Source: Patescibacteria group bacterium
GTDB lineage: Bacteria; Patescibacteriota; Minisyncoccia; Phycocordibacterales; UBA9973
Direction: 5' to 3'
Length of the DNA stretch: 64,000 nucleotides
Assembly: GCA_040388575.1 (NCBI GenBank)
Contig: JAZKBO010000002.1
Location: 95,942 to 159,941 of the forward strand
This document shows, piece by piece, positions 1,355 to 61,373 of the stretch. The position numbers were made by a program, and so were the translations under genes. How positions within the stretch are numbered: the stretch's first letter is position 1; every line of letters begins with the position of its first letter. A model generated the notes under the pieces. The model was not told where the DNA came from. It saw only the letters and a program-made list of their open reading frames with translations, and did not search any database.

Positions 1355-1359
1355 ACTAA

Positions 1360-6382: not shown

Positions 6383-6397
6383 GATAACACTTTATAC

Positions 6398-7321: not shown

Positions 7322-7340
7322 GTCGTCCTATATTTAGTTT

Positions 7341-8792: not shown

Positions 8793-8801
8793 CTGTTTTT
8801 T

Positions 8802-9200: not shown

Positions 9201-9212
9201 TGTCATGAGGAA

Positions 9213-9272: not shown

Positions 9273-9274
9273 AT

Positions 9275-9834: not shown

Positions 9835-9848
9835 AATTATTATTGTTA

Positions 9849-10391: not shown

Positions 10392-10395
10392 AAAG

Positions 10396-15869: not shown

Positions 15870-15872
15870 AAA

Positions 15873-17036: not shown

Positions 17037-17039
17037 GGG

Positions 17040-17567: not shown

Positions 17568-18715
17568 TATATTGAAATACTTTCTCTGGCTTCTAAAGCT
17601 ATCCCTTCAGCCTCATCAGTAGTACCTGCCAATACTGTTATGTGGCCCATTTTTCTCTCTGGCCGCGTTTCCATCTTACCATAAATATGAACTGAAATAC
17701 CACTCAACTTTTCAGCACTCTCGAGTCCTTTTATTTGGACAGGGCCGCTCCTTTCGCCCAGAATATTTATCATAACAGCGGATGAAATTTGCTCAATATC
17801 AAGTATTGGTAGCTCAGCTATGGCGCGGATATGCTGTTCAAATTGGGAAACATTAAATGCTTCAATGGTGTGATGTCCAGAGTTATGGACTCGGGGTGCG
17901 ATTTCATTAACTAAAACTTCATTGTCTTTTGTTAAAAACATTTCAACTGCAAAAACTCCCACCCCTCCCAATTTATTCAGAGTTCTGCCCGCTAGTTCGT
18001 GGGCTTTATCAGCAACTTTCTTGGAGACATTAGCTGGTGAACGCACGATATGGCATATATTATTTTTATGCACAGTTTCAACCACAGGGTACGAAACTAT
18101 TTTACCAAAGACGTCGCGTGCAGACACAACGGAAAGTTCTTTTATAAATGGTACGAACTTTTCAGCGTAAAGTGGGCTTTTCGAAAGCTTTGCAAATGCA
18201 GTGGTAATTTCAGCCTCATTTTTTATTAATACGTTCCCTCTGCCATCATATGCGTCGAACCTGGCTTTAAGAAAGTAGGGATAACCGAATAATTTACCTT
18301 GTTCGATGCAATCTTCTTCGTTATTAATTAGTGCAAAATTTGCTACTGGTATTAAATTCTTTTCAAGAAATGCTTTTTGGGAAAATTTATCTTTAATAAT
18401 TTTTAATATATTAGGATCGGGGTTGACTGGTTTACCACTTTTTATAATTTCAAAGAGAGCTTCTTCGTTAATTCCTTCTAGCTCAACAGTTAAATAATCA
18501 GACTCCACCGCAAGTTCTAAAATTTTATCTTTATCCTTAAAGCTACCGAGGATCTGTTTATTTGCTACCTGTCCTCCAGGAGAATTCGGCGTTGGGTCGA
18601 GAACTATAACCTTGAAGCCCAGCCTGTGTGCAGCATTAGTGAGCATTCTGCCTAATTGTCCGCCGCCAACTATACCTATCGTTTTTTTATCGTTGGGCAT
18701 GATTAATTCTTGCAT
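17567..18715 (-). CDS. purK: N5-carboxyaminoimidazole ribonucleotide synthetase (ATP-grasp)
   Basis: N-terminal [13 protein letters not shown] and an ATP-grasp fold pattern. Its stop overlaps the purE start (ATGA-type). Confidence 0.85.
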
Positions 18716-18773
18716 TTTTGTTAAATAAAAACAATTGACGGGAGCCCCTTCTCGGAGCCCCCGTCGTGTGTAT

Positions 18774-19100
18774 CTATATTGCTGGAACAGCCGGTTTGCT
18801 GCGCCGACTGCTTCCTCTGGGGTATGGTACGTCGAGTGGTGCTTTTCGTACCCGATTTAACACCAATACGGCGATGACCCCAGCGGAAAGAACGACTATA
18901 GTTGAGCCGATGATCCCTACAACAGGGCTCAGACCACCAAAGGCTCCGCCGAGGAAAGCCCCGATCAGCGTTAGCGCGTAGCTGAATGGACAGAAAGCGG
19001 CCCCACCATTTTTACACGGTATGCCCGCCTCTTGCACCTCATGCACCCAGATCGAAATAGTGAATCCAATGAAAGCGCCCCATAAGGCACTTACCAACAT
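18774..19100 (-). CDS. GC-rich small membrane protein (likely TTG start preceded by GGAGGTG SD) inserted inside purine operon
   Basis: Gly/Ala-rich hydrophobic protein (..GAFLGGAFGGLSPVVGIIGSTIVVLSAGVIAVLVL..). The local GC is far above the surrounding sequence. The SD 'GGAGGTGCCC' sits 5 nt before TTG. The ORF-track N-terminus (MYYHIWRCPLGA) probably reads through the RBS. Confidence 0.4.
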   Translation of the reverse strand: MLVSALWGAFIGFTISIWVHEVQEAGIPCKNGGAAFCPFSYALTLIGAFLGGAFGGLSPVVGIIGSTIVVLSAGVIAVLVLNRVRKAPLDVPYPRGSSRRSKPAVPAI

Positions 19101-19156
19101 TGCGCCCAAGGGGCACCTCCAAATATGATAATACAATATTAACCTATCTAGTCAAT

Positions 19157-20452
19157 CTACCTTTCCAAGCCTAAAGCCTTCTGACCAATATCTTTTCGGA
19201 ATTGCATTCCTTCGAAATGTATTTTTGAAATTGCTTCGTAAGAGGTACTAAGTGCCTTCTTTAAGGTGAGACCAGTTGCTGAAACGCCCAGCACACGCCC
19301 ACCGTTGGTAACTAAGTTCTTCTTTTCATCTAGCGTAGTTCCTGAATGGAATATAACAATGTTGCCATTCCTTTGAGCTTCTTCTAGGCCAGTAACCACT
19401 TTACCTTTTTCATATTTATTCGGGTAGCCACCTGAGGCTAGTGCAATATTGCAGGCAAATTCATTTTTCCATCCGATATTTAAATTATTTAAAGTGCCAT
19501 CGATTGAGGCGTCAATTATGTCTAGGAAGTCAGTTTCAAGTATCCGCATATAAGTTTGAGTTTCCGGATCACCAAAGCGAGAATTGAATTCGAAAACCTT
19601 TGGTCCGTCTAAAGTTATCATTATGCCAGGATACAAACACCCTTTAAACTCTCTTCCCTCCTCCCTCATACCTTTTATCGTCGGAGTAATAATCTCTTTT
19701 TCTATCAAATTCATCATACTGGGCATAATAAAAGATAATGGCGCAATTGTTCCCATCCCTCCGGTGTTAGGCCCAATATCTCCATCTAGAATCCTTTTGT
19801 GATCTTGGGACGCAGGAAAAATCTTGTAATTTGTGCCATCTGAAATTGCATGAATAGATATTTCAATTCCTGCAAGATATTCCTCAATAATTACTTCGTT
19901 GCCCGCAGAGCCGAAAACTTTATCAACTAAAATTTTATGGAGCGCATTGATAGCTTCCTCCTTGCTCTGCGCAACTGTAACGCCCTTACCTAGCGCCAAC
20001 CCACTCGCCTTAATTACTACAGGCACTGGGCCCTTTTCTACATAAGCTTTTGCCCCTTCAAAATCAGTGAAAACTTGGTGCCTAGCAGTGGGTAAATGGT
20101 GGCGGGTCATGAAGTCTTTAGCGTACGCCTTGGACCATTCAAGCTCACTGGCCGCCTTAGTTGGCCCCCAGACGCGCATATCGAACGCTGTAAATGCATC
20201 TACCACGCCTGCTGCCAGCGCATCGTCAGATACAACCAGGGTTAGGTCCACGCCTTCACTCTTAGCAAAGCCTAGTAAGGCCGGCGTATCAGTTTCTTTA
20301 ATGTCTAAATTTGTGCCTATTTGTGCTGTACCAGCATTACCTCTAGCAAAAAATAATTTCCCCGCTCTTTCTGACTGAGCAATTTTCCAGCCTAAGGCGT
20401 GCTCTCTGCCACCGCCGGCTCCAATTATTAAAATTTTATTATATTTAATCAT
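19157..20452 (-). CDS. purD: Phosphoribosylamine--glycine ligase (GAR synthetase)
   Basis: N-terminal ILIIGAGGGREHALGWK and the ATP-grasp pattern. Confidence 0.9.
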   Translation of the reverse strand: MIKYNKILIIGAGGGREHALGWKIAQSERAGKLFFARGNAGTAQIGTNLDIKETDTPALLGFAKSEGVDLTLVVSDDALAAGVVDAFTAFDMRVWGPTKAASELEWSKAYAKDFMTRHHLPTARHQVFTDFEGAKAYVEKGPVPVVIKASGLALGKGVTVAQSKEEAINALHKILVDKVFGSAGNEVIIEEYLAGIEISIHAISDGTNYKIFPASQDHKRILDGDIGPNTGGMGTIAPLSFIMPSMMNLIEKEIITPTIKGMREEGREFKGCLYPGIMITLDGPKVFEFNSRFGDPETQTYMRILETDFLDIIDASIDGTLNNLNIGWKNEFACNIALASGGYPNKYEKGKVVTGLEEAQRNGNIVIFHSGTTLDEKKNLVTNGGRVLGVSATGLTLKKALSTSYEAISKIHFEGMQFRKDIGQKALGLER

Positions 20453-21071
20453 CTATATTTGTTAATTTCTCAAGAACCTCTATATATAACTGATTTTCCT
20501 TTTTCTTTAAGCGTGAATATAGCGATTCTACGTTATCATGTTCATCCACTGCCTCAAATGTTCTACCTAACACTGGCCCGAAGTCAAAATTTTGGGTTAA
20601 AAAGTGTATTGACGACCCTGCATAAGTAGATTCTTTATCCAAAAAATTCTGGATAGCCTTATCAGTGAGCATGCCTTTATTCCACAAGGCTTCTGTGCCA
20701 TCAGGATTCTTTACTTTTCCATCCACCGAATCAGGAATAAGCCCAGGGTGGAGGTTTAAGATTTTATTTGGATACGCCTCAATAACCGAGTTTACGATAA
20801 TCTGCTTCCAGCCAGCAAGGCATATAAAATCAGGACTAATTTTTTGGAGGAGCGGTAGGAGCTCATCCTTGTATTTGCAAATTTCAATATTCAAACCATG
20901 TTTTCTCGCTCGCTCTAGGCCGAGAGCGGCTGGAGTATCTGAAATAACCGCTGAAATCTCAGCATTTATTTTATTAGCCTCGACCGCATCAATAATAGCC
21001 TGCAAATTAGTGCCTGTGCCAGCATCAGAAATAAGAACCGCGAGTTTCAATTTATTCTTTCGCAACATCAT
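20445..21071 (-). CDS. purN: Phosphoribosylglycinamide formyltransferase
   Basis: KLAVLISDAGTGTNLQAII and NLHPGLIP (PurN N-x-HPSLLP motif). Confidence 0.85.
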   Translation of the reverse strand: MMLRKNKLKLAVLISDAGTGTNLQAIIDAVEANKINAEISAVISDTPAALGLERARKHGLNIEICKYKDELLPLLQKISPDFICLAGWKQIIVNSVIEAYPNKILNLHPGLIPDSVDGKVKNPDGTEALWNKGMLTDKAIQNFLDKESTYAGSSIHFLTQNFDFGPVLGRTFEAVDEHDNVESLYSRLKKKENQLYIEVLEKLTNIDD

Positions 21072-22464
21072 AGCTTACCTCCCCTTTTCTTTCTTTTAAA
21101 TCGATAGGATATTCTCCGGTAAAAAATGACGTGCATAAATGATCCTTTGGGATACCAATAGACTCAACCATCCCGTCTAGGGATAGATATTTAAGAGATG
21201 TAGCACCTAAATATTGCCGGATCTCCTCCACAGTTTTGTGGGATGCAATTAATTCATCTTGTGTAGGAGTGTCGATACCGTAAAAATCAGGGAAACGCAC
21301 TGGTGGCGAGGAAATTAATAGATGCACTTCCTTAGCGCCATTTTTAAATAATGATTCTACGAGTTTACGTGAGGTGTGGCCACGGACGATGGAGTCGTCA
21401 ATTACTGCAATTCTTTTACCTGTTAAAATTTCAGGCAAAGGTACCAGTTTTAAGGCCACGCTGTGTCGGCGGGATTCTTGGCTAGGTTCGATGAACGTGC
21501 GATGCACGTATCTATTCTTAACTAGTGCTAGCTCGAGTGGTATTCCAGATTCCTGAGAAAATCCAATAGCCACTGGCATGGCAGTGTCTGGTACTGGCAC
21601 AACCGCATCAACTTTTAAACCCTTACACTCACGTGCGAGGGCTCTGCCGAAATTTTTCCTAACATCATAAATGAGCTTGCCATTTTGGACGCTATCGGGT
21701 CGAGCAAAATAAACATATTCGAAAATATCATGCTTTGGTGTGGCTGGAGCAAGGTTCATGCATTTAAGTCCATCCTCATTTATTACAAGCATTTCACCAG
21801 GCAGAACTTCCTGGATAAAAGTAGCCCCGATAGTTTTAAGTGCGCAAGTTTCCGATGCTACAACAAAACCATCATCATTCTCACCGATACTGCCTAGACA
21901 AAGTGGCCGCATACCATAGGAGTCTCTAACAGCAACTAAAGTATCTTCAGTCATCATTACTAGGGCAAAGGCTCCAGTTAGAAGTGGAAAAACTTTTTCA
22001 ACTGCTTGGGCGAGCTTGTCACCCTTCTTAAGATACACATCCACTGCATCTAGAATAAGTTCAGAATCACTGCGATCCTCCTTAAGCGCATTATTTGTTT
22101 TAAGAAAATCTTGAAGTGAAGTTACAGAAGGCAAATTGCCATTATGAGCCAATGCAAAAGTCTCGGTATCATTTAGTACTGGTTGCGCATGAGCAAGCGC
22201 CCCGCCACCTGAAGTTGAATACCTGTTATGGCCGATAGCAATATTACCATGGAGCATGTTAATATTTTCCTCTGTATAAACTTGGGAAACCAGGCCTACT
22301 CCTTTATGTGTTAAGAGCTTAGTGCCGTCATTGGTAGTGATGCCAGAGGCTTCTTGTCCGCGATGTTGGAGGGCAAAGAGAGCAAAAAATGCTAGGCGCG
22401 AAACTGGCAACTTATTGCCCCCATATATTCCTACGATTCCACATTTTTCTTTCAATTCACTCAT
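21052..22464 (-). CDS. purF: Amidophosphoribosyltransferase
   Basis: N-terminal nucleophile MSELKEKCGIVGIYG and a PRTase domain (VIDDSIVRGHTS). Confidence 0.9.
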   Translation of the reverse strand: MSELKEKCGIVGIYGGNKLPVSRLAFFALFALQHRGQEASGITTNDGTKLLTHKGVGLVSQVYTEENINMLHGNIAIGHNRYSTSGGGALAHAQPVLNDTETFALAHNGNLPSVTSLQDFLKTNNALKEDRSDSELILDAVDVYLKKGDKLAQAVEKVFPLLTGAFALVMMTEDTLVAVRDSYGMRPLCLGSIGENDDGFVVASETCALKTIGATFIQEVLPGEMLVINEDGLKCMNLAPATPKHDIFEYVYFARPDSVQNGKLIYDVRKNFGRALARECKGLKVDAVVPVPDTAMPVAIGFSQESGIPLELALVKNRYVHRTFIEPSQESRRHSVALKLVPLPEILTGKRIAVIDDSIVRGHTSRKLVESLFKNGAKEVHLLISSPPVRFPDFYGIDTPTQDELIASHKTVEEIRQYLGATSLKYLSLDGMVESIGIPKDHLCTSFFTGEYPIDLKERKGEVSYDVAKE

Positions 22465-22465
22465 A

Positions 22466-23236
22466 CTAATTTTTATTTCGAAAGTAATTTATTGCGTTTT
22501 TAAAAATCAAAATTCCATCTCCCCATTCGGATGTAATCATTTTTTTATTCTTCTGCCACATTGGACTCTGGTGAGAGAACATTGCTCTCTCCGGATGCGG
22601 CATGAGCCCTAGTACTCTACCATTATAAGCCAATACTCCTGCAATGTCATGCATAGAGCCATTTGGATTTGCTTTAAGGTTCTGGAACTTACATATATTA
22701 CCTTTCGTGTAAGTAAATGCAATTTGCTTATTCTTTTTTAGGTTTTTATAGTCCTTCGCGCTAATTGTATATTGACCCTCACCATGAGCAATTGGAACCG
22801 AAATTGTTTTGATGCCAGTTAACCACGGACTCTTTCCTTCAACCTTGAGGTCCACCCAGCGGTCGAGGTACTTTCCTCCGCTATTGAATGTCAGCGCACC
22901 TGGTAGTATGCCTAAACTTGTAGTAATTTGAAAGCCATTACAGATACCAATAACCAAAGTATCACGTGTAAGGAATTCCGTAAGTTCTTTTGAAAGGTGA
23001 TTTTTAAATTTATTAGCATAAGCCTTGCCGCTACCTGTGTCATCACCATACGCAAAGCCGCCAGGAAAAGCGAGGATGTCATACTCCTTTAAAATGGCTG
23101 GGCTAGCAATTAAATCATTTAAGTGGACAATGTCAGCCTGTCCACCAGCCTTTTCAAATGCGAACTTCGTCTCCTCCTCGCAGTTGAGGCCGTAGCCTGA
23201 CATTATTATTATTTTGGGTTTCCTATTTAACTTCAT
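22466..23236 (-). CDS. purQ: FGAM synthase glutamine amidotransferase subunit
   Basis: Class I GATase triad context (GICNGFQ ... HGEG / PHPE). Adjacent to purL. Confidence 0.8.
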   Translation of the reverse strand: MKLNRKPKIIIMSGYGLNCEEETKFAFEKAGGQADIVHLNDLIASPAILKEYDILAFPGGFAYGDDTGSGKAYANKFKNHLSKELTEFLTRDTLVIGICNGFQITTSLGILPGALTFNSGGKYLDRWVDLKVEGKSPWLTGIKTISVPIAHGEGQYTISAKDYKNLKKNKQIAFTYTKGNICKFQNLKANPNGSMHDIAGVLAYNGRVLGLMPHPERAMFSHQSPMWQKNKKMITSEWGDGILIFKNAINYFRNKN

Positions 23237-26181
23237 TTCATTGATTCGGAAAATTTATGATAAAGTCCGTGTAATTTTTTAATATTAGTATCCACAACTT
23301 TATTTTTACCAGATGAAATACTAACCTTGCCGTCTTTTGAGACTGTGCCTAGTCTATTGAAAGCTATTCCGGTTATTAATTTTTCAAATTTCTTTATATT
23401 TTGGGGACTTACAGATACTAAAATTCTACCTTGTGACTCGGAAAATAATTTCACATCAATACTTGAGTCCCCTTCTAAATTTATCTTGGTGCCCAACATC
23501 CCACCCACACAAGCCTTAGCAATAGCTATCCCTAGCCCACCTGAGGTAACTGAGAGGGAAGATTCTATTAAGTTGTGTTCGATTGCATCCTCTAGAGCTT
23601 TATATGTTTTAAGATTTTTCTTGTAATCAACCTTTGGCACATTGCTTCCCAAAGACCCTAACATCTTGAAATATTCCGAGGCACCAAGTTCATCCTTAGT
23701 CTCACCTAATAAATAAACAATGTCGCCAGGGCTTTTAAATTCAGGCGAAATAGTTTTATGCAAATCTGGCATCACGCTGATTGCGCTGATAAGAAGTGTG
23801 GGTGGGATGGAGATTTTAATAGGTTTACCCTTTTCATTAAATCCGGAAAAGTCATTAAACATACTATCTTTACCTGAAATAAATGGGGTGCCGTAGGCCA
23901 CAGCAGCATCGTAACAGGCCTTGAGTGAGTCCAAGAGCTCAGCCAAGCGCTTCTTGTCATAGGAAGAGCACCAGCAGAAGTTATCTAAGATCGCTAGATG
24001 TGAGAGTTTGGCCCCAGCAGCAACGGCATTACGCACAGCAGTATCGAGGGATCCCGCGGCCATATCATAAGTATTAATATCAGAGTATGAAGGAAATAAG
24101 GCGGCGGAAATAACTACACCTTTATTCGAGCTTAGTACCGGTTTGAAAACTTGAGCATCAGTATTAATTCGCCCTGGGCCAGAAAGTGGTTTTAATACAG
24201 AAGATGCCTGGACCTCGTGGTCATATTGCTCTGATACGAATGAGTAGCTCCCAATGTTATTATTGCTCAATAAATCCTCTAAAACCTTTGTCCTGGAAAT
24301 GCCTTTTGGTAATTTCGGATCAGGATAAGAGTAAAGATATGGGGTAGTTTGTAAATGTTTCTTGGGATAACCGTTATGTAAGAAATCGAGCTCCATATCC
24401 ATGATGTTTTTTCCTCCATATGAAACTATACATTTACCCGAGTCTGTAAATTCTCCGATTACTGTGGCTTCTACACCTCGCCTCTTCATGAGGGTATTAA
24501 AGACCTCCCATTTTTTAGGCGGGATTGCGAGAGTCATGCGCTCTTGGGATTCCGAAATCCAAATTTCCCATGGGCGCAGGCCAGGATATTTAAGTGGCAC
24601 TTTCTCCAAATTAACTTTAGCTCCACCGCATTCCTTAGCCATTTCGGCCACCGAGCATGAAATGCCACCAGCACCGTTATCGGTAATGCTATTGTATAAA
24701 TCCATGGCACGAGCCTCCTTAACGATCGCATCACTTAACTTCTTTTGTGTAATTGGGTCACCTATTTGGACTGCAGTGGCAGGAGAATTCGAATCCATAA
24801 CTACGGATGAAAATGTTGCCCCATGAATACCATCGAGGCCTACTCTGCCACCAACTACTACAATATAATCCCCTGGTTTGGCAGATTTTTCGTACGATGG
24901 TTTACCATTTATTTTCGTTGGAATTAGTCCTACTGTACCAGCGAAGACTAATGGCTTGGCTCGGAATCGATCATCAAACTTTATAAATCCCGAAAGCGTT
25001 GGTATTCCAGAACAATTACCGCCAGTATTGATGCCCCTTATCACACCATCCATAATGCGCCTTGGTGAAAGCATTTCCTGCTTGAAATTAGCAGCTTTAT
25101 AGAACTTTCTTTTATCGCTTGGCTGGCCTAAACAAAAGCCATAAGTATTGGCAACAGGCTTGGCCCCGAGCCCAAAGCCAATGCAATCACGATTCACTCC
25201 CACAATCCCTGTGATAGCGCCGCCGTATGGATCGAGTGCCGAGGGGCTGTTATGAGTTTCTACTTTGTGGGTTATTAAATATTCATCATCGAAAGCTATG
25301 CCTCCAGCATTGTCAGAAAATACTGAAACACAGAAGTCATCCTTGCCTTTTTTCATTCGGATAATATTAGTTGCTCCCTTAATATATGTTTTATATAGCC
25401 CTTCCTTCACATCATCTATCGCACTTGCGAAAATAGTATGCTTGCAATGTTCGGACCAGGTTTGAGCTAGGGATTCTAGTTCAATGTCAGTAGGGTCACG
25501 CTGTAGTTTAATAAAGTACTCCCGGATAGTTTTCATGGAATCCAAGTCGAGAGCCAAAGGTCCACGGCGGCCGCCAGTTTCAGGGTCCTGTACGCCTTCA
25601 CGGCCAATACGTACAAGCTCATCATCTGAAACATTAAGGCTAATTTTTATTACTGGAGTATGCTTGCCGAGAATTACCTCTGGAACCTTAAGTGGTAAGT
25701 TTCTTTTTTTTTCGATCTCTTGTGAGCTAGTAATATACGAAGACTCAATCAGTGGATTGTGGAGTGATAGAGCTATTGCTTTAGCATCACTGTTTGTGAT
25801 ATTTCCATTAATTAAAAAAACTTTTGAGGAAAAGACATTAAGATTTGAATTGTGCGGTAAATGTAGGAGGTCAGTAATAGTTTCCTTAACAGTATGGGCA
25901 ACATTGTCAGTGACTCCAGGTTTATAGCCAATTTCGATAAGATAAGTAGATTTCTTCCCACTAGGGATTAGATTGATGGAATACTCCTCCAAAATAGGAT
26001 TAGTTAGAGCTTCCCCGATTTTAATTAATGAGTCATGGCCTAAACTATGCTCAATGAGATACGAATCTATTATCTGAATATTGCTTATTTTACCTTTGAG
26101 CCCCAGGCTCGCCCATGATTTTTTATAGAGTCCCTCTCGTACATCTTTGTTTTTCTGGGCGACGTATACTCGGGAAATCAT
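23233..26181 (-). CDS. purL: Phosphoribosylformylglycinamidine synthase, fused PurS-like N-domain + PurL synthetase domain (982 aa); glutaminase encoded separately
   Basis: Large-PurL-like N-terminal domain and linker, then the SESQERM block and AIR-synthase-related repeats. There is no GATase domain in this ORF, and purQ is adjacent. Confidence 0.85.
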   Translation of the reverse strand: MISRVYVAQKNKDVREGLYKKSWASLGLKGKISNIQIIDSYLIEHSLGHDSLIKIGEALTNPILEEYSINLIPSGKKSTYLIEIGYKPGVTDNVAHTVKETITDLLHLPHNSNLNVFSSKVFLINGNITNSDAKAIALSLHNPLIESSYITSSQEIEKKRNLPLKVPEVILGKHTPVIKISLNVSDDELVRIGREGVQDPETGGRRGPLALDLDSMKTIREYFIKLQRDPTDIELESLAQTWSEHCKHTIFASAIDDVKEGLYKTYIKGATNIIRMKKGKDDFCVSVFSDNAGGIAFDDEYLITHKVETHNSPSALDPYGGAITGIVGVNRDCIGFGLGAKPVANTYGFCLGQPSDKRKFYKAANFKQEMLSPRRIMDGVIRGINTGGNCSGIPTLSGFIKFDDRFRAKPLVFAGTVGLIPTKINGKPSYEKSAKPGDYIVVVGGRVGLDGIHGATFSSVVMDSNSPATAVQIGDPITQKKLSDAIVKEARAMDLYNSITDNGAGGISCSVAEMAKECGGAKVNLEKVPLKYPGLRPWEIWISESQERMTLAIPPKKWEVFNTLMKRRGVEATVIGEFTDSGKCIVSYGGKNIMDMELDFLHNGYPKKHLQTTPYLYSYPDPKLPKGISRTKVLEDLLSNNNIGSYSFVSEQYDHEVQASSVLKPLSGPGRINTDAQVFKPVLSSNKGVVISAALFPSYSDINTYDMAAGSLDTAVRNAVAAGAKLSHLAILDNFCWCSSYDKKRLAELLDSLKACYDAAVAYGTPFISGKDSMFNDFSGFNEKGKPIKISIPPTLLISAISVMPDLHKTISPEFKSPGDIVYLLGETKDELGASEYFKMLGSLGSNVPKVDYKKNLKTYKALEDAIEHNLIESSLSVTSGGLGIAIAKACVGGMLGTKINLEGDSSIDVKLFSESQGRILVSVSPQNIKKFEKLITGIAFNRLGTVSKDGKVSISSGKNKVVDTNIKKLHGLYHKFSESMK

Positions 26182-26206
26182 ATAAGTATAGTATCACTAA
26201 TGGTTT

Positions 26207-27595
26207 CTACTTCCAATAACGCTCTACCACATGATGTTCCTCTGGGCCGGTGCCAACATATATAATTTTCGCTCCCAGATTTTTTTCAAGGAATTTAACA
26301 TAATCTAAGGCTTCCTTGGGTAATTTAGTGTCGTAGTCTGAAAGTCTGCCCTGCCACAATGGAAATATTTTCAAAACGGGTTTAATAGTGACTTTCGAGA
26401 TGTCGAATGGGATTTTAGAAGTTTTTTTACCGTCAATCATATACTCTGTGCAAACTTTTATATTTCTAAATCCTGAAAGGACATCGAGCTTGGTTAAAAC
26501 TAATTCAGTCGCGTTATTCATTTTGATGGCATATTTAAGCAGCGGAATATCCAGCCAGCCTGTACGGCGCAGGCGGCCAGTGGTGGCCCCAATTTCATTA
26601 CCTAATTTTCGGAGTGCTATGCCTTGCTCGAATTCATCTGTACTATTTGGGTCAGGGGTTGGGTAAGCTTTATTTTCATCAAATAATTTTTTATCGCGGC
26701 ACCAAACTGCTGAAACTTGACCGCCGAGCTCGGTAGGAAACGGGCCCTCGCCCACTTTAGTTGTGTATGCCTTCAAAATTCCAATAGCGCCACCTATATA
26801 TGAGGGTGGAATACCGAGCCCAGTGCCTACCCCACTTGAAATGGTGTGGGAAGACGTTACGAATGGGTAATGTCCGAAGCGAATATCAAGAAGTGCTCCC
26901 TGCGCCCCCTCCGCTATAACTTTTCTGCCAGTAGATAGTGCGGCTTCAACAATTTCTGCAGACTCAATTAATTTAATCTTACTTAAAAATTTAATACCTT
27001 TGAAGAAGTGAGCTTCACTCTCCTTTAGTTCACTATCTTTGAGTCTGTAGTCGAAAACCTTCTCTAGGGTTTGCTTATGCTCATTGCGTAGTGCTTGGTA
27101 GTGCTCTTTAAAATCCTTTTGGTAAATGTCCCCAACACGCAATGCCCTACGCAACGTAAGGTCAGTATATGAAGGCGAAATGCCTCTACCAGTTGAGCCT
27201 ATTTTTCTTTTACCTTTAGTCTTTTCAGAAATTGTATCTAAAACAAGGTGGGTAGGAATAGTTAAAATTGCATGGGGTGAAACTGACATTCTACCCAGGA
27301 AGGAAATATTTTTTGGAATTACAGAAGCTTCATTTAATAATGCACCTGGATTGATAACCATACCAGCTCCCAAATGAATTTGTGCTTTACCAAAAACCCC
27401 TGACGGAATGAGATGAAATACATAACATTTCCCTTTGTGCCAAATAGTATGCCCAGCATTGTTGCCACCTTGAAAACGTACAATTAAATCTTGTGCTTTT
27501 AAGCCCGATGCAATACGCGCCACGCCCTTGCCTTTGCCTTCATCGCCCCATTGGAGGCCGATGATCGGTATAATTTTGGATTTAATATTCTTCAT
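26207..27595 (-). CDS. purA: Adenylosuccinate synthetase
   Basis: QWGDEGKGKG P-loop signature and GAQGALLDIRFG. Confidence 0.9.
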   Translation of the reverse strand: MKNIKSKIIPIIGLQWGDEGKGKGVARIASGLKAQDLIVRFQGGNNAGHTIWHKGKCYVFHLIPSGVFGKAQIHLGAGMVINPGALLNEASVIPKNISFLGRMSVSPHAILTIPTHLVLDTISEKTKGKRKIGSTGRGISPSYTDLTLRRALRVGDIYQKDFKEHYQALRNEHKQTLEKVFDYRLKDSELKESEAHFFKGIKFLSKIKLIESAEIVEAALSTGRKVIAEGAQGALLDIRFGHYPFVTSSHTISSGVGTGLGIPPSYIGGAIGILKAYTTKVGEGPFPTELGGQVSAVWCRDKKLFDENKAYPTPDPNSTDEFEQGIALRKLGNEIGATTGRLRRTGWLDIPLLKYAIKMNNATELVLTKLDVLSGFRNIKVCTEYMIDGKKTSKIPFDISKVTIKPVLKIFPLWQGRLSDYDTKLPKEALDYVKFLEKNLGAKIIYVGTGPEEHHVVERYWK

Positions 27596-29094
27596 TATTC
27601 TTTTGAGTAGTTTGAGGTTGGACTAACCATAAAAATATCATGCACATGGCTCTCTCGCAGCCCAGCACCGGTAATAGTATAGACCGATGCATCACGCAAA
27701 TTATTTATTTCTTTTGCTCCCAAATACCCCATACCGGATCGTAGCCCGCCAATATATTGATGGAGAACCTCTCCAAGTGGACCTTTGTAAGGCACATGAG
27801 CGGAAACTCCTTCTGGAACAAGCTTGATCGGATCATATTGATCATCCTGGAAATATCTGTCCTTGGAACCTTTTTGCATTGCGTCCACTGAACCCATCCC
27901 ACGATACTTTTTAAATTTTTGTTCATTGCTGATAATTATCTCCCCAGGAGATTCATCGGTGCCTGCAAAAATACTTCCAGACATAACTACATCTGCACCG
28001 AAGACGAGGGCTTTGACTACATCACCACTGTATTTAATGCCGCCATCTGCAATAACAGGGATATCGTGAGCAGCACACGCTTTATAGACATCGTAAATTG
28101 CGGAAAGTTGAGGCACGCCCACCCCAGAGACGATTCGAGTAGTACATATTGAACCCGGACCAATGCCCACCTTAATTGCGTCAGCTCCGGCTTCGATTAA
28201 GGCTAGCGCAGCTGCACCTGTGGCAACATTACCGGCAATAATATCTAGCTTAGGATACTTAGTTCTAATATTCTTAACTGTATCAATAACTCCCTTGGAA
28301 TGGCCATGGGCTGTATCAATGCAAATTAAATCTACCTTACTCTCGACGAGTGCATCCACTCGTGCCAGAGCATCGGCACCTGTGCCAACTGCAGCTCCTA
28401 CGCGAAGCTTACCCTCAGCATCTTTGGTTGCGTTCGGATATTCGCGGCTTTTGACTGTGTCACCATGGGTTATCAAGCCCACCAACCTGTTGTCTTTATC
28501 AACTAGAGGCAACTTTTCTACACCGTGCTGCTTGAATAAATCATTCGCCTCCTCAATGGACGTATCAGCATGGCCAGTTATAAGCTTGGTAGTCATTATG
28601 GTTTTTATCGGCACAGTATCACTCTTTTCAAAACTTTCAAAGCGCAAATCCCTTTTAGTAACTAAACCAACCAGGGTACCCGTCTGGCTAATAATCGGGA
28701 TACCACTAATATTATTTTTTTGCTGGATTCGGAGTGCATCACCAATCGTTGCATTCTCAAGCAGTGTAATCGGATCTGTGATACGTCCAGACTCAAAGCG
28801 TTTAACTGTAAGTACATGGCTGGCTTGCTCCGTTACCAGTAAATTCTTATGAATAATACCAATGCCGCCATATTGAGCCATGCCGATAGCCATATCGCTC
28901 TCTGTCACGGTATCCATTGCAGCAGACATTAACGGAATACTTAGTGAAATATTTTTTGTTAGACGAGTTTTGATTATTACATCCTTCGGCAGCACTTCAG
29001 AATAGTTTGGTACCAACAAAATATCATCAAAGGTAAGCCCTTGGCCTAGCATATTAGGCATTGATACTTTTTTATCACCTTTTTCGTTTGTCAT
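27595..29094 (-). CDS. guaB: IMP dehydrogenase (with CBS pair)
   Basis: [10 protein letters not shown] start, CBS domains, catalytic loop [11 protein letters not shown]. Confidence 0.9.
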
Positions 29095-55129: not shown

Positions 55130-57070
55130 ATGGAGACCGCGATGAAAATTGTGACGATAATTCCGTTAGAAAAAGGACCACTCCGAGGCGATTTAACATA
55201 CTTTACAAGCAAAAATATTGAAAACGGAAGTATCGTAGAAGCTACCCTCCGGAGTAAAAAAATACTGGGCCTGGTGGTATCGGTCGAAGAACTGACTGGC
55301 TCTAAAGGCGAGGTCAAGGAGATGGACTTCAATTTAAAGAAAATTATCGATGTTAAGGAGCACTCTGTTTTTAGAAAAGAATTTTTGGATAGTGTCCTCC
55401 TCACTGCCAAGTATTTTGCGGCACGCAATAATGACACCATCGCTACGCTTATTCCTGGAATTCTGCGAGAGGAATATGACAAAATTTCAAAATTTACAAA
55501 AATGGAAAGTGTTAAGCCCGCTGCCCAAAAAGGCATCCGGAATGAAAAGTTAATTCTTCAAGCTTCACTTGATGAGAGAATATCCTCATATAAAACGCTA
55601 ATCCGTGGATCTTTCGCTCAAAAAAAATCAGTTTTTATGGTTTTGCCAACTGAATACGATATTGAAAATTTTAATAAAATCCTGGGTAAGGGTATCGAGA
55701 AGTTTACTTTCTTTGTGCATAGTGGGCTAGCTCGCAATAAACTAGTAGAACGCGTAGAGAGGATACTTGCCTCCGATCATCCAGTATTAATTATCGGCAC
55801 AGCACCATTCCTAGCCATCCCACGACACAATATAGGCACAGTAGTGCTGGAACATGAAAATTCTACCGCATACAAAACGATAGCCCGGCCACATTTGGAT
55901 TTGCGAATTTTTGCGGAAATTTTTGCTGAGAAAATTAATGCTAAATTTATACTTGGTGACACCTTGCTACGATTCGAGACTATTGGCCGAGGTGAGATTG
56001 AAAATATATCTCCGGTGCATCCACTTTCATTTCGAACTGACTTTGGGGGCAAAATTGAAATTGTTCCTAAGGGTGATAAATTTAAAATTCTTACTGATGA
56101 GACAGTAGAAAACATTAAAAATGCGGTTGCAAAGAAGAAAAAAGTTTTCGTTTTTTCCTTCAGGAAGGGGCTGGCCACGATGACCATCTGCCGCGATTGC
56201 TCGACTATTGTATTCTGTGACAGGTGTAGCGCACCTGTCGTGCTCTATGAGTCCCAAGACGGCAAGAAACGTATGTTTATTTGCAATCGTTGTAAGAGAG
56301 AGTTACCAGCTGAAACTACATGTGCCACTTGTGCTGGCTGGAACCTAATGCCACTCGGCATCGGTACTGAAACAGTGCAGGAAGAGCTTAAAAATGTTTT
56401 TCATGGTGAAAAAAGTGTCAAAATTTTTAAATTAGATAAAGAATCTGCAAAGACTAAGAAGGGTGCCAGAGATATAATCAAAGAGTTTGAAGCAACCAGT
56501 GGTTCTATACTAGTTGGTACTGAAATGGCATTTTTTTATATGAAAGAGAAGGTGGCACTCTCAATAATCGCTTCATTTGACTCACTGTGGAGTATCCCAA
56601 GTTTTAAAATGAGCGAGAAGGTGGTAGAAATTATGCTCGCGGCTGTGGCTAAGACTAATGATACTTTTATTGTGGAAACTAGAAATGAAAATGATGCCGC
56701 AATTCGTGCCGTGGAAAGTGGCAACCTGGCCCCCTTCGTCCGTGAAGAACTGTATGATCGAAAAAAATTAGACTACCCACCATATAAACGCTTTATCAAG
56801 ATCACTCACTTGGCCGATAAAATACAAACAGCAGGAGCTAAAGAAATGTTGCAAGAACTTTTTAAGGATTACAATCCGGAAATTTTCAGCGGCTTCGTAG
56901 CTAAAATGCAAGGTAAATACATCACTAACACTTTAATTAAATTGGATTTGAAAAAATGGTCCCTGCCAGAGCTATCCTTAAATTCCTCGATAGATGAGAA
57001 TCTTTTAACTCGTATTCGCTCCTTACCACCGAACTTTGAGGTCTTTGTGGATCCTGAGGATTTGCTTTAA
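55130..57070 (+). CDS. priA: Primosomal protein N' (PriA) homolog with degenerate Walker A/B motifs and intact Cys-rich zinc-binding region
   Basis: N-terminal 3'-DNA-binding-like domain. The helicase core aligns with PriA (..MVLPTEYDIENF..FFVHSGL..VLIIGTAPFLAIP..TVVLEHENSTAYK). GxGKT is replaced by ISSYKT and DEEH by LEHE. The zinc region C-x2-C...C-x2-C...C-x2-C...C-x2-C is present. Confidence 0.65.
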   Translation: METAMKIVTIIPLEKGPLRGDLTYFTSKNIENGSIVEATLRSKKILGLVVSVEELTGSKGEVKEMDFNLKKIIDVKEHSVFRKEFLDSVLLTAKYFAARNNDTIATLIPGILREEYDKISKFTKMESVKPAAQKGIRNEKLILQASLDERISSYKTLIRGSFAQKKSVFMVLPTEYDIENFNKILGKGIEKFTFFVHSGLARNKLVERVERILASDHPVLIIGTAPFLAIPRHNIGTVVLEHENSTAYKTIARPHLDLRIFAEIFAEKINAKFILGDTLLRFETIGRGEIENISPVHPLSFRTDFGGKIEIVPKGDKFKILTDETVENIKNAVAKKKKVFVFSFRKGLATMTICRDCSTIVFCDRCSAPVVLYESQDGKKRMFICNRCKRELPAETTCATCAGWNLMPLGIGTETVQEELKNVFHGEKSVKIFKLDKESAKTKKGARDIIKEFEATSGSILVGTEMAFFYMKEKVALSIIASFDSLWSIPSFKMSEKVVEIMLAAVAKTNDTFIVETRNENDAAIRAVESGNLAPFVREELYDRKKLDYPPYKRFIKITHLADKIQTAGAKEMLQELFKDYNPEIFSGFVAKMQGKYITNTLIKLDLKKWSLPELSLNSSIDENLLTRIRSLPPNFEVFVDPEDLL

Positions 57071-57106
57071 GCGCATTATTGAGTTATAAAATACACAGGA
57101 GGCGCA

Positions 57107-57364
57107 ATGTACCGTTTCATGTTCTTCAGGGGGCGAAAGCGTCTCCGGTGGGATGAAATACCCACAAAAGCGAACGGGGAAGTCTTTAATGCAGCCAATA
57201 TGCAAAAGGCTTTCGAATACTGCTTCGCCAAGTATCAAGAAGGCGGCACAGTGTACGGCGGAGGCGACATGACGCGCGACGTCCCCGCCTGGGTTCCAGC
57301 TCCAGTTCGACACACACGTACCATCTCGCACCCCGACGAAGCGTCGGCACATGCGGACAAATAA
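57107..57364 (+). CDS. GC-rich small protein (85 aa) with AGGAGG SD, own terminator
   Basis: ACAGGAGGCGCA-ATG. Local GC is about 58%. No motif. It is followed by a stem/T-run terminator. Confidence 0.4.
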   Translation: MYRFMFFRGRKRLRWDEIPTKANGEVFNAANMQKAFEYCFAKYQEGGTVYGGGDMTRDVPAWVPAPVRHTRTISHPDEASAHADK

Positions 57365-57378
57365 CAAGCGACCGGTTA

Positions 57379-57428
57379 GCACGCGAAAGGTCAATCCCTT
57401 TCCGTGCTCCCGGCGATTTTTTTTGCCC
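57379..57428 (+). terminator. Rho-independent terminator (GCACG(C)GAAAGG...CCTTTCCGTGC stem, then T8)
   Basis: An approximately 11-bp stem with one bulge, followed by GATTTTTTTT. Confidence 0.55.
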
Positions 57429-57454
57429 GAAATTTCAGTGTATAATGTATAAGT

Positions 57455-57943
57455 ATGAAAAAGACCCTTCTTTCATTAGCTTTAATACTGACCTTCGGCG
57501 CCTATACTGCCTTTCTAAGGTCTGATATCACTTCCAAACTCCATACCCCAATTGTTCCTGTCACAACACCGGATCCCTCACCAATTACCCAAACACCCTC
57601 TCCAACACCCACAACTCCAACCCCAGCACCAACTACCCCACCAAGCAATACTGGTAAATTTAAAAATGGCACCTATACTGGTGACAGCGTGGATGCCTTT
57701 TATGGTAACGTGCAAGTATCAGCAATAATTTCCGGTGGCCAGCTAACAAATGTTACCTTTCTAGATTATCCCCGAGACCGCCGAACTTCACTACAAAAGA
57801 GCAATCAGGCGATGCCGATACTGAAGTCTGAAGCCATATCCTCCCAGAGTGCAAATGTTAATAGTGTTTCCGGAGCTACCTACACTAGTGAAGCCTTTAC
57901 TCTCTCCCTTACCTCTGCCCTCAATCAAGCAAAAAATATATGA
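57455..57943 (+). CDS. Secreted FMN-binding domain protein with flavinylation motif
   Basis: Signal peptide plus a PT-rich linker. The FMN_bind pattern is GTYTG...GNVQVSAIISGGQLTNV...VNSVSGATYTS. The [S/T]GAT[Y/F][T/S] motif is the ApbE flavinylation site. Confidence 0.75.
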   Translation: MKKTLLSLALILTFGAYTAFLRSDITSKLHTPIVPVTTPDPSPITQTPSPTPTTPTPAPTTPPSNTGKFKNGTYTGDSVDAFYGNVQVSAIISGGQLTNVTFLDYPRDRRTSLQKSNQAMPILKSEAISSQSANVNSVSGATYTSEAFTLSLTSALNQAKNI

Positions 57944-58692
57944 CATCAATAAAGAAAACTGAACTCATCATGGGTATGCCTATTACACTAGAAATTGTTG
58001 GTGATATGGTCACTGAGGGTGCCTTCAAATTAGTTTTTGATTACTTTAAATATATCGATGAAAAATTTAGCACTTATAAAAGCGGCAGTGAAATGATGCG
58101 CATTAATCGCGGGGAGATTGATGAAAAGGAGTATAGTGAAGACATGCGGGAAGTTCTGGCATTATCTGAAATCACCAGGAAAGAAACGGGTAATTATTTC
58201 GATATTAAAAGGTTAGACGGCTCCCTGGATCCTTCCGGCTTAGTTAAGGGCTGGGCAATACACAATGCGGCCCACCTGCTAAGGGATGCAGGCTTTAAGA
58301 ATTTTTGCATCGAAGCTGGTGGGGATATTGAAACCTTTGGATTAAATAGTGAGTGTAAAGTTTGGACCGTCGGTATTAGAAATCCATTCAATACAACCGA
58401 GATAGTAAAGATACTCCACAGTGATAATAAAGGAATTGCTACTTCCGGCAATTATATACGTGGGCAGCACATTTATAATCCTAAGGAAAAGATGGGTAGG
58501 GTTGAGGGCGTAGTAAGTTTAACAGTGGTGGGGCCCAATATTTATGAAGCAGACCGCTTTGCTACCGCAGCTTTTGCGATGGGCGAGGCTGGAATAATGT
58601 TTATTGAAAAATTGCCGGGATTTGAAGGCTATATGGTTAATGATAACGGCATCGCAACTTTTACCAGCGGTTTTGAAAAGTATGTCAAATAA
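57940..58692 (+). CDS. apbE: FAD:protein FMN transferase (ApbE family)
   Basis: ApbE-family blocks (..ALSEITRKETGNYFDI.., GWAIHNAAHLL, IEAGGDIETFG, ATSGNYIRG). Its start overlaps the upstream stop (ATGA), indicating operon coupling. Confidence 0.8.
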   Translation: MTSIKKTELIMGMPITLEIVGDMVTEGAFKLVFDYFKYIDEKFSTYKSGSEMMRINRGEIDEKEYSEDMREVLALSEITRKETGNYFDIKRLDGSLDPSGLVKGWAIHNAAHLLRDAGFKNFCIEAGGDIETFGLNSECKVWTVGIRNPFNTTEIVKILHSDNKGIATSGNYIRGQHIYNPKEKMGRVEGVVSLTVVGPNIYEADRFATAAFAMGEAGIMFIEKLPGFEGYMVNDNGIATFTSGFEKYVK

Positions 58693-58703
58693 AATTTTGT
58701 AAT

Positions 58704-60236
58704 ATGATCCGACTTATCGACAACTTGCTAAACAAAATCACGATGTATCGGCTAGTGCTGTATTTTTTGATTATATTAGTTGCTGTTGCAGGGATACTAG
58801 GAAGCATCGGATTCCTGCCATTTAGCCCACTGATGCTGCTACTTTCGGTTACACTACTTACCGTAGTTTGTTATGTAATTAATAAATTATTTTCCTTGGC
58901 TTTCAATGCACCGACCAATGTGGAGTCAGTATATATTACAGCTCTTATCCTTACTCTCATCATAACCCCACCTAGCAGCTTGAGCGATATTTCATATTTG
59001 ATTTTTATTTTTTGGGCGGCCACTTGGGCCATGGCTTCGAAATACATCCTGGCTATTGGAAAAAAACATATTTTTAATCCTGCAGCTTTCGGTGTAGCCC
59101 TTACAGCTCTTACTATCAATCAATCCGCTAGCTGGTGGATAGGCACAGCAAGCATGGCACCCTTCGTCATCGTAGGTGGGTTGTTAGTTGTGAGGAAAAT
59201 CCGCCGTTTTGACTTTATACTTTCTTTTCTTACAGTAGCCTTAATTGGCACAATCCTTCTACATGTTAATAGCCTACCGGGTGCATATATTATTTTAAGA
59301 AGGATGTTACTTTCATCCCCACTTTTATTTTTTGCTACTATTATGCTCTCCGAGCCACTCACCACCCCGCCGAAGCGTTATGCACGTATGGGCTACGGTG
59401 CGTTAGTGGGAGCGATATTTGACCCAAGTATCCACTTGGCTGGCTTATATTCCACCCCAGAGCTAGCCTTGCTCTTGGGCAATATAATATCCTATATTCT
59501 AAGCCCTAAGAAAAAATTAATGCTTAGATTAATTGCTAAGGAACAAATAGCTAAAGACACTTATCAATTTTCCTTCACTTCTGGTAAAGATGAAATGGAA
59601 TTCCATCCTGGGCAATACTTAGAATGGACCCTCCCACATAAGCACTCTGACAGTAGGGGCAACAGGCGCTACTTTACTATTGCTTCCTCTCCAGTGGAAG
59701 AAAATTTCCGAATTGGGGTTAAGTTTTATCCGGAACCATCTAGCTTTAAAAAAACATTATTGGGAATGAAACCCAATGACATGCTAGTTGCTTCTGGACT
59801 CGCTGGAGAATTTATTATGCCTCACAATAAAGATGTGAAGTTATGCTTCATGGCCGGTGGAATTGGCATTACCCCTTTTGAAAGTATGCTGAACTATATG
59901 CTTGAGCGTAAACAACATAGGGATGTGATAATGCTTTACTCCAATAAAACTTCCGCTGATATTGCCTATCTGGAGACTATAAAAAGGGCTCAAAATGAAC
60001 TCGGAATTAGGACGGTGCATGTTCTGTCAGATACAAACTCACTCCCAACGGGTTGGCAAGGGGAAAGTGGATTTATCACAGCTGAAATGATCAAAAGAAA
60101 AGTACCTGATTGGAATGAAAGAATATTTTTTATTTCCGGGCCCCATGGCATGGTGAATGCTTTCAAAGACGCCTTAAAGGAGATGGGTGTACACCGTTCA
60201 CATATTAAAATTGACTTCTTCCCTGGTTTTGCTTAA
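58704..60236 (+). CDS. Fusion protein: RnfD/NqrB-like polytopic membrane domain + C-terminal FNR-like FAD/NAD(P)H oxidoreductase module
   Basis: N-terminal ~250 aa has 6-8 TM helices with HIFNPAAFG (compare NqrB/RnfD FNPAL). The C-terminal part has RRYFTIASSP (the RxY[ST] FAD motif), GGIGITP (NAD(P)-binding) and no 2Fe-2S Cys cluster. Confidence 0.6.
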   Translation: MIRLIDNLLNKITMYRLVLYFLIILVAVAGILGSIGFLPFSPLMLLLSVTLLTVVCYVINKLFSLAFNAPTNVESVYITALILTLIITPPSSLSDISYLIFIFWAATWAMASKYILAIGKKHIFNPAAFGVALTALTINQSASWWIGTASMAPFVIVGGLLVVRKIRRFDFILSFLTVALIGTILLHVNSLPGAYIILRRMLLSSPLLFFATIMLSEPLTTPPKRYARMGYGALVGAIFDPSIHLAGLYSTPELALLLGNIISYILSPKKKLMLRLIAKEQIAKDTYQFSFTSGKDEMEFHPGQYLEWTLPHKHSDSRGNRRYFTIASSPVEENFRIGVKFYPEPSSFKKTLLGMKPNDMLVASGLAGEFIMPHNKDVKLCFMAGGIGITPFESMLNYMLERKQHRDVIMLYSNKTSADIAYLETIKRAQNELGIRTVHVLSDTNSLPTGWQGESGFITAEMIKRKVPDWNERIFFISGPHGMVNAFKDALKEMGVHRSHIKIDFFPGFA

Positions 60237-60907
60237 GAAACTAGTACTGTAAATTCCCCTTTTTGTTTAACCGGATTTTGTTTTAAATATTCTAGGAGTT
60301 CGGCTGGCTTGCCTGTTTTAAATTCTTCATATATTTTTGTAAGCTCGCGAGCGAGGCAGACATTTTTCTCTGGACAAAATTTAGCCAGCGACTCTAAAGT
60401 TTTCAAAATTCTGTGAGGGGACTCGTAGAAGACCATTGTGCGCTTGGCATCGGCTATTTCTTTAAATAAAGTCTCCCTACCCTTTTTATGCGGCAGGAAT
60501 CCGAGGAATGTAAACTCGTGCGCTGGAAAACCTGCGCCTGATAGGGCGGTTATCACGGCCGATGGCCCAGGAATAGGAATAATTTCTATGCTATTCATGA
60601 ACCTGCCCCTAACCTTATCAATAAGCATTATCCCTGGATCGGAAATACCAGGAGTGCCCGCATCCGATACTAGGGCTAAATTCTTTTCATCCTTAAGCAA
60701 GTCAAAAATCTTTTCAATCTTGGAAAGTTTGCTATGCGCATGATAGCTCAAGGTCGGTGTATTGATACTGTATTTGTCTAAGATTTTTTTCGTCTCTCTA
60801 GTATCCTCACATAAGATTAGGTCCACACTTTTAAGAGTTTCAATAGCACGAAGAGTTATGTCACCCATGTTTCCGATAGGCGTGGCAACTATATAAAGTT
60901 TAGACAT
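60233..60907 (-). CDS. rsmI: 16S rRNA (cytidine1402-2'-O)-methyltransferase
   Basis: LYIVATPIGNMGDITLRAIETL...LILCEDTR tetrapyrrole-methylase-like fold, typical of RsmI. Confidence 0.85.
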   Translation of the reverse strand: MSKLYIVATPIGNMGDITLRAIETLKSVDLILCEDTRETKKILDKYSINTPTLSYHAHSKLSKIEKIFDLLKDEKNLALVSDAGTPGISDPGIMLIDKVRGRFMNSIEIIPIPGPSAVITALSGAGFPAHEFTFLGFLPHKKGRETLFKEIADAKRTMVFYESPHRILKTLESLAKFCPEKNVCLARELTKIYEEFKTGKPAELLEYLKQNPVKQKGEFTVLVS

Positions 60908-61373
60908 TTGTCCTTTCTTCTTTAAGTGGAGTCAAGCTAGCAAACACTACAATTGCTAAGGCGATTATTAAAATATTTTTTATTATGTATTGCCCTTCAA
61001 TAGTAGGCACACCGAAACTTGCCCAAGTGAACTGTGGCAAAAGAATTAGTGGCATAATGGTAGTGATCATATGAATTGCAAGAAAAAACAAACCTAAACG
61101 TTCCATCTTAGGCACGATAAATAAGAGCCCAATAATCATTTCAAACACACCAAAGCATATTAAGAAGCCTCCTGGTGGAACACCATGGAGAGTTTTATTA
61201 AGGAGTGCCACTACGAGTGGATTAGCGGCGCCATTTTCCGCGAAGACCTTAATCGCCCCGAAATAAAAATAAACCAAAAATATTGCGAATCTGGCGAACG
61301 GCACTGCCGTCCTCTGCATAAAACTTACTAATTTATAGTCCCAAGTCTCTATTTTTGCATTAAAATTTCGCAT
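60900..61373 (-). CDS. Small 4-TM membrane protein (DoxX-like?)
   Basis: Hydrophobic pattern only. The family assignment is tentative. Confidence 0.3.
   Translation of the reverse strand: MRNFNAKIETWDYKLVSFMQRTAVPFARFAIFLVYFYFGAIKVFAENGAANPLVVALLNKTLHGVPPGGFLICFGVFEMIIGLLFIVPKMERLGLFFLAIHMITTIMPLILLPQFTWASFGVPTIEGQYIIKNILIIALAIVVFASLTPLKEERTNV

Follow-up and report, generated by a model that had tools for sequence, protein, structure and literature searches.

A leaderless ApbE in a compact NQR/RNF-like flavinylation operon of a Patescibacteria group bacterium

Patescibacteria are thought to be largely fermentative and to possess few membrane redox systems. By what route, if any, could such a cell pass electrons from its cytosol to its surface? 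The question is raised by three co-directional genes on the forward strand of contig JAZKBO010000002.1 from a Patescibacteria group bacterium, within a stretch of 64,000 nucleotides (the window, to whose first letter all positions refer unless a locus is named). The first gene, g1 (57455-57943), encodes an NqrC/RnfG-like FMN_bind subunit of 162 residues (PF04205); the second, g2 (57940-58692), a compact, leaderless ApbE-family FAD:protein FMN transferase of 250 residues (PF02424); and the third, g3 (58704-60236), a protein of 510 residues in which a membrane domain of RnfD/NqrB fold is fused to a ferredoxin-NADP+ reductase (FNR)-type FAD/NAD(P)H module. The g1 stop and the g2 start share an ATGA overlap at 57940-57943, read directly from the sequence, and g2 is separated from g3 by a spacer of 11 nt. 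This is the arrangement given in a preliminary description of the stretch, and the peptides VSGATYTS, HIFNPAAFG, RRYFTIASSP, and GGIGITP that it named are all found in the translations of the three genes. The operon is a typical member of the published NQR/RNF-like flavinylation system, a class already known, including from the candidate phyla radiation (CPR). It probably encodes a two-subunit complex together with its maturation enzyme, the complex serving as a flavin-only transmembrane electron conduit.

Domains, fold, and topology of the two subunits

The polytopic N-terminal domain of g3 (residues 1-268, 58704-59507) matches the Pfam family NQR2_RnfD_RnfE (PF03116) at 24.2 bits, under the gathering threshold of 27.7, and only the C-terminal half of the profile is covered. 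A precomputed PF03116 match is present in most of the close homologs, and a profile of residues 1-268 compared with the sequences of the PDB gave a single match, to RnfD of Azotobacter vinelandii (8AHX_D, E = 0.0019). Because a fold search with the full-length protein was swamped by matches to the FNR module, the membrane domain was modelled and searched alone. Its AlphaFold2 model (predicted local distance difference test, pLDDT, 79.9; predicted template modelling score, pTM, 0.82) retrieved RnfD (7ZC6_D, 8AHX_D, 8RBQ_D) or NqrB chains as all of its top 13 Foldseek matches, with TM-scores up to 0.72 and a probability of 1.00, while the next match had an E-value of about 2. For the predicted structure the fold search settles the assignment to the RnfD/NqrB fold, and the earlier claim that an NqrB/RnfD-like membrane domain is joined to an FNR module holds on profile and fold matches, with Pfam below threshold.

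Conservation was read from 80 loci for g3 and its neighbourhood, 73 homologs of g1, 71 syntenic loci for ApbE, and 66 junctions between g1 and g2. The membrane domain comprises about ten helices. Segments rich in lysine and arginine lie at the N-terminus, at GKKH (residues 119-122), at RR (167-168), and at SPKKKLMLR (267-275), and because of their positions both ends of the domain, and with them the FNR module, are predicted to be cytoplasmic. An uncharged loop at residues 139-151 (SA.WW..T), in which S141, A142, W144, W145, and T148 are invariant, is predicted to face outward. Within the membrane, the family keeps six invariant acidic or polar residues (E74, D170, E217, E253, N72, and N125). 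The flavinylation motif [ST]GA[ST] is absent from g3 and its 79 homologs (0/80), which leaves g1 as the necessary source of the covalent flavin. From the FNPAAF motif of g3 to the segment aligning with RnfD 221-328 there are only 18 residues, as compared to about 88 in RnfD itself; the loop of about 70 residues that bears the covalent FMN in RnfD and NqrB appears to have been deleted.

The cytoplasmic FNR-type module (residues ~270-510, 59512-60236 including the stop codon) is recognised by Pfam as FAD_binding_6 (PF00970, 27.5 bits) and NAD_binding_1 (PF00175, 61.1 bits), with RRYFTIAS as the FAD-binding and GGIGITP as the NAD(P)H-binding motif. NCBIfam gave partial matches only, to the FNR-type modules of flavohemoprotein, BenC, and NqrF. 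In the full-length model (pLDDT 83.7) the C-terminal half matches the FAD domains of NqrF, cytochrome b5 reductase, and flavohemoglobin, with Foldseek E-values of about 1e-16 to 1e-18. NADH may tentatively be named the preferred donor, because LYSNKTSADI, which follows strand two of the NAD domain, is similar to what we take to be the NADH-specific pattern of cytochrome b5 reductase.

The partner subunit, g1, matches FMN_bind (PF04205) at 31.6 bits against a gathering threshold of 22, and its closest PDB sequence is a single FMN-binding domain (8P2A_A, E = 3.4e-12). It consists of an MKK start and a transmembrane anchor (residues 4-22), a Pro/Thr-rich linker (residues ~31-66), and the FMN_bind domain (residues 73-159). 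The predicted ApbE flavinylation site is Thr142 (codon 57878-57880), 20 residues from the C-terminus. Of the 73 homologs, 61 have Thr and 12 have Ser in the acceptor column, so that every one carries one or the other, and the flanking S, G, and A are kept in 71, 73, and 73. The motif, [VI]SGA[TS]x[TS]S, ends about 16 residues before the C-terminus. The description of g1 as an FMN-binding protein with a threonine acceptor motif is borne out in this way, and the presence of the acceptor in orthologs, on which that description had made itself depend, is uniform.

Its further claim that g1 is secreted stands in part. Judged by hydrophobicity and charge, the conserved MKK and hydrophobic helix carry a bias for a cytoplasmic N-terminus in 72 of the 73 homologs, and the segment after the helix is rich in Pro, Thr, and Ser; the FMN_bind domain is accordingly predicted to face outward, with the anchor running from inside to outside. 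The pattern inside the anchor helix is itself conserved, which suggests an uncleaved membrane anchor like that of NqrC and RnfG. The protein would thus be extracytosolic but tethered at its N-terminus, not freely secreted. The charge patterns of the two subunits place the g1 domain outside and the N-terminus and FNR module of g3 inside, which fits the function first proposed.

Relation to known electron-transfer systems

The NQR/RNF-like system is defined by a PF03116 and PF00175 fusion within a flavinylation-associated cluster, that is, one with ApbE and/or FMN_bind at most five genes away and at least one of them with an export signal; 127 such clusters were first counted, mainly in Actinobacteria and CPR (Méheust, 2021, eLife 10:e66878, PMC8238504). 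For g3, PF00175 is clear and the weak PF03116 match is backed by homologs, profile, and fold, and g1, with its MKK and transmembrane signal-anchor, and g2 lie directly upstream in the same operon. A complex from Ktedonobacter has been modelled by AlphaFold-multimer, with an NqrB-like subunit that has no flavinylation threonine (Huang, 2024, mSystems 9:e00375-24, PMC11334425). In that model the flavinylation site of the NqrC-like protein lies beside the flavin pocket of the NqrB-like one, which the covalent FMN is proposed to sample (PMC11334425). The membrane subunit described here and its homologs likewise have no such threonine motif, and g1, with its uniform acceptor and conserved anchor helix, resembles the NqrC/RnfG-like partner. 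In fusion, FMN_bind subunit, adjacent apbE, and absence of other Nqr/Rnf subunits, the architecture is the same as that of the published system, with no architectural difference. The novelty implied by the preliminary description was consequently overrated.

For this class, the published proposal is that electrons flow one way, leaving NAD(P)H in the cytosol, crossing the membrane, and ending on a covalent flavin outside it (PMC8238504, PMC11334425). The path from NAD(P)H to an extracellular flavoprotein suggested earlier for the present locus is the same, and the predicted topology fits it. In such a path, for which we infer the cofactor content of the membrane domain, the direction of flow, the acceptor, and the compartment in which flavinylation occurs, the FNR module of g3 would oxidise NAD(P)H on its FAD in the cytoplasm. 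Electrons would cross the membrane through the RnfD/NqrB-fold domain, most likely by way of a non-covalent flavin, by analogy with the riboflavin of NqrB, and reach an FMN attached covalently by g2 to Thr142 of the outward-facing, anchored g1. This FMN would dock at the position that in NqrB and RnfD is taken by the covalent FMN of the subunit itself. The reduced surface flavin could then serve an acceptor outside the cell or in its envelope, such as Fe(III), a soluble flavin or quinone, or O2, with regeneration of NAD(P)+ or reductive uptake as the net effect. A widespread conduit of this kind could be one of the few routes by which Patescibacteria dispose of reductant, reduce iron, or interact with their hosts through redox chemistry, an idea that is already published. 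As a compact set of three genes, the operon is also a candidate with which an NQR/RNF-like complex might be reconstituted biochemically for the first time.

The canonical complexes Na+-NQR (NqrABCDEF) and Rnf (RnfABCDEG) share with the operon the fold of NqrB and RnfD in the g3 membrane domain, a likeness of the g3 C-terminus to the FAD/NADH domain of NqrF, an FMN_bind domain as in NqrC and RnfG, and ApbE as maturation factor. They differ from it in having six subunits instead of two, as well as Fe-S centres, the NqrD/E or RnfA/E pair, NqrA, and RnfB/C. Additionally, the flow through the operon's products is predicted to run one way outward, not in a semicircle, and neither a quinone nor a ferredoxin site is apparent. 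The window holds no six-subunit Fe-S operon, and g3 lacks the covalent-FMN motif of the canonical membrane subunits. Neither 2Fe-2S proteins nor RnfA/B/C/E or NqrA/D/E occur in the window or among the conserved neighbours of the 80 loci, and no other Nqr/Rnf subunits, Fe-S proteins, or quinone genes were found among the ~55 annotated genes of the window, in keeping with the earlier observation that such partners are missing nearby.

The extracellular electron transfer (EET) locus of the Listeria type (Ndh2, EetA/B, DmkA/B, PplA, and FmnB) resembles the operon in that an ApbE-flavinylated, tethered FMN_bind protein outside a monoderm cell is proposed as the last protein-bound carrier of electrons from cytosolic NADH. 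The operon, unlike the Listeria locus, has no Ndh2, no EetA/B, and no demethylmenaquinone step, and genes for NDH-2, EetA/B, or a prenyltransferase were detected neither in the window nor among the conserved neighbours. In Listeria the membrane is crossed by the quinone pool, whereas the operon would use an NqrB-like flavin domain, and FmnB is a secreted lipoprotein, while the ApbE of the operon has no leader. A parallel in layout is offered by MsrQ-like and PepSY-like NAD-binding fusions and by the NOX/STEAP ferric reductases, in which a polytopic wire is joined to a cytoplasmic FNR NAD(P)H/FAD module and leads to an extracytosolic acceptor, often with apbE and FMN_bind genes as neighbours. 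These proteins employ bis-histidine haems in a ferric-reductase or PepSY fold; g3, with its RnfD/NqrB fold and no pattern of haem ligands, presumably relies on flavins.

The leaderless ApbE and competing explanations

The catalytic domain of ApbE is readily recognised in g2 (PF02424, 134 bits, E = 8.7e-39), which aligns to the ApbE structures of Vibrio cholerae (6NXI), Escherichia coli (4XGW), and Salmonella but is about 80 residues shorter than these enzymes. In the alignment to 6NXI and 4XGW the histidine of GQHIYNP pairs with that of SHIIDP, and ADrfAT pairs with ADGLAT. We take the former to be the catalytic histidine and the D...T of the latter to be the Mg2+/metal site; both are kept, in agreement with the earlier reading of g2 as an FMN transferase of this family. 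The extracytosolic signal, lipoprotein or Sec, that is typical of ApbEs serving extracytosolic substrates is lacking. No signal peptide, lipobox, or hydrophobic segment was found in g2 (the maximum Kyte-Doolittle mean over 17 residues is 1.44), and ApbE is leaderless in all 71 syntenic loci, with a lead-in of about 8 residues ahead of the first conserved strand (MK.TR..M, then GMP.T.E). The operon enzyme is compact, at ~247-256 residues, across Patescibacteria and Chloroflexota (for example, locus L001, 5245-5988, and locus L052, 5262-6008).

Several ways of restoring an export signal were considered and rejected. A longer g2 is ruled out, the open reading frame (ORF) in the window opening at the first start after a stop. 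The longer ApbE ORFs at other loci are artefacts of taking the longest frame: the added residues are not hydrophobic, and the same MK.TR start is found inside these ORFs. A programmed frameshift that would join g1 to ApbE and so export the latter is likewise excluded, because the tight junctions of 66 loci fall in all three relative frames. A second ApbE paralog in locus L056, taken as a possible leader-bearing comparator, is also leaderless and was uninformative.

A periplasmic location is essential for Salmonella ApbE, and the known cytosolic ApbEs modify cytosolic substrates (PMC12052999). The leaderless enzyme complicates the extracytosolic flavinylation step, and its uniform occurrence in this operon seems to be unreported, being absent from both Méheust (2021) and Huang (2024). 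Three options are left, namely flavinylation before translocation, another export route for ApbE, and an inverted topology of g1. It is possible, if somewhat unlikely, that in Patescibacteria and Chloroflexota a cytoplasmic ApbE flavinylates the C-terminal tail of g1 before or during Sec translocation, the FMN-bearing polypeptide then being exported. If so, ApbE substrates would have a maturation route that has not been described for them, and no FAD exporter would be needed, which would be sensible in the genome-reduced cells of CPR. Flavinylation was termed "strikingly underrepresented" in CPR in a survey filtered on signal peptides, and because of that filter leaderless ApbEs may contribute to the reported scarcity.

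Several points weigh against a flavin-only conduit ending at the cell surface. ApbE is leaderless at every locus examined, yet its sole candidate substrate, g1, is predicted to face outward; the PF03116 match of g3 lies below its gathering score; the intermediate cofactor of the membrane domain is assumed by analogy; no acceptor enzyme or transporter is conserved near the operon in the 80 loci; and our search of the literature found no experimental characterisation of any NQR/RNF-like member.

The same complex could instead perform assimilatory iron reduction, the surface FMN reducing Fe(III) chelates for uptake and not disposing of electrons in general. Six NQR/RNF-like clusters include the ferrous transporter VIT1 (PMC8238504), and a link to iron exists for the analogous flavinylated systems of the MsrQ-like and PepSY-like types. 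Nevertheless, a dedicated iron role is unlikely for this family, as neither an iron transporter nor another acceptor-related gene is conserved across the 80 loci or present in the window; a VIT1, reductase, or cytochrome gene was looked for beside the operon at these loci, and none was conserved.

Still less probable is a minimal ion pump, in which a cation channel of the NqrB/RnfD type would have been kept and the transfer from NAD(P)H to the outer flavin coupled to Na+ or H+ export, or driven in reverse by the gradient. The cation path of Na+-NQR runs through NqrB, the six invariant intramembrane residues of g3 could be read in this light, and an F-type ATP synthase adjoins the operon here and in its closest relatives. 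However, the coupling partners (NqrD/E or RnfA/E pairs with an Fe-S centre) are absent from the window, and an outward flow of electrons alone dissipates membrane potential and does not build it.

Least likely of all is a cytoplasmic g1 domain, forming a membrane-associated flavoprotein reductase served by a cytosolic ApbE as for the cytoplasmic fumarate reductase of Klebsiella: it would suit the lack of leaders at all 71 loci and the documented cytosolic enzymes with cytosolic substrates (PMC12052999), but the MKK and helix of g1 favour the opposite orientation in 72 of 73 homologs, its linker is rich in Pro, Thr, and Ser, the covalent-FMN pocket that g1 is modelled as filling is found on the outer face of NqrB and RnfD (PMC11334425), and the C-terminus and FNR module of g3 already occupy the cytoplasmic one. 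The outward-facing conduit remains the probable reading of the operon.

Distribution and genomic surroundings

In a scan of one genome per GTDB species, at least 583 species genomes encoded a relative, mostly of Patescibacteria lineages with some Chloroflexota. The membrane-domain profile retrieved 563 representatives at 50% identity (E <= 1e-30), mostly fusions of 490-515 residues. The family is therefore much commoner than the 127 clusters first counted, one likely reason for the low count being the frequent failure of PF03116 to reach its threshold, seen also in g3. What the locus adds to the published class is a further member, a higher census, the observation that Pfam thresholds miss part of the family, and the leaderless ApbE.

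The order g1-g2-g3 is kept in about 67 of the 80 loci, which come from different species, and no conserved partner beyond these three genes was found among them. The commonest other neighbours, named by eye, are an ABC ATPase and a sigma-factor-like gene, at 15 of the 80 loci each. The latter, which looks like the ECF type, is located just 3' of g3 at about 15 of the 80 loci (for example, L033, 7534-8166, and L043, 10494-10949) and is followed in about six by a possible anti-sigma membrane protein, which hints at regulation linked to envelope stress in some lineages. Seven loci (L027, L031, L037, L046, L049, L051, and L072) carry a Patescibacteria-like operon in records that give 'uncultured Gammaproteobacteria' or 'Thermoanaerobaculia' as the source; these are probably not the true hosts, the contigs having been mis-binned or mislabelled.

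Upstream of g1, a hairpin followed by a T-run (57372-57420, forward strand) is present in both the minimum free energy and the centroid folds and is probably the terminator of the preceding small ORF. Because transcription of that ORF likely ends there, g1-g2-g3 would form a transcription unit of their own. No promoter could be assigned to it above chance, consensus matches being at least as frequent in shuffled sequence. An FMN riboswitch or other known RNA 5' of g1 was also sought and set aside, with no Rfam match at the gathering threshold in the window and none with E <= 1 in 57000-57470.

The small ORF (57107-57364, forward strand; 85 residues) has a strong AGGAGG Shine-Dalgarno sequence and lies, with its own terminator, in an island of 54% GC (57085-57425) between priA and g1, in a genome of about 41% GC. 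The island has an RNA fold z-score of -2.25; it matches no Pfam family, nor any Rfam family at E <= 1, and none of the 80 related loci contains it. Either a small acquired gene or a structured RNA outside the known classes could account for it. On the other side of the operon, a small DUF417/DoxX-like membrane protein (60900-61373, reverse strand), encoded between g3 and the genes for ATP synthase, is weakly similar to RclC, a protein of reactive-chlorine resistance. It was rejected as a partner, adjoining the operon in only 1 of the 80 loci.

The remainder of the window is made up of housekeeping genes: a purine operon, cell-wall and replication genes, RelA/SpoT, a two-component pair, and the F-ATPase. 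Nucleotide biosynthesis is usually said to be missing from Patescibacteria. The window nonetheless encodes a near-complete block for de novo purine synthesis (13543-29094, reverse strand), comprising purB, purC, a purM-like gene, purE, purK, purD, purN, purF, purQ, and purL, then purA and guaB, and the gene set is not as uniformly reduced as the preliminary description had it. At the start of the window (125-10445, reverse strand) lies a predicted secreted or surface cluster with an S41 protease bearing a PDZ domain, a CAP-domain protein, a sortase, a matrixin-like M10 peptidase, and InlB B-repeat, DUF3761, and aspartyl-protease-like proteins, as well as a protein of 857 residues (3340-5913) with no Pfam match. 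This cluster may represent a sortase-dependent surface arsenal of relevance to an episymbiotic lifestyle.

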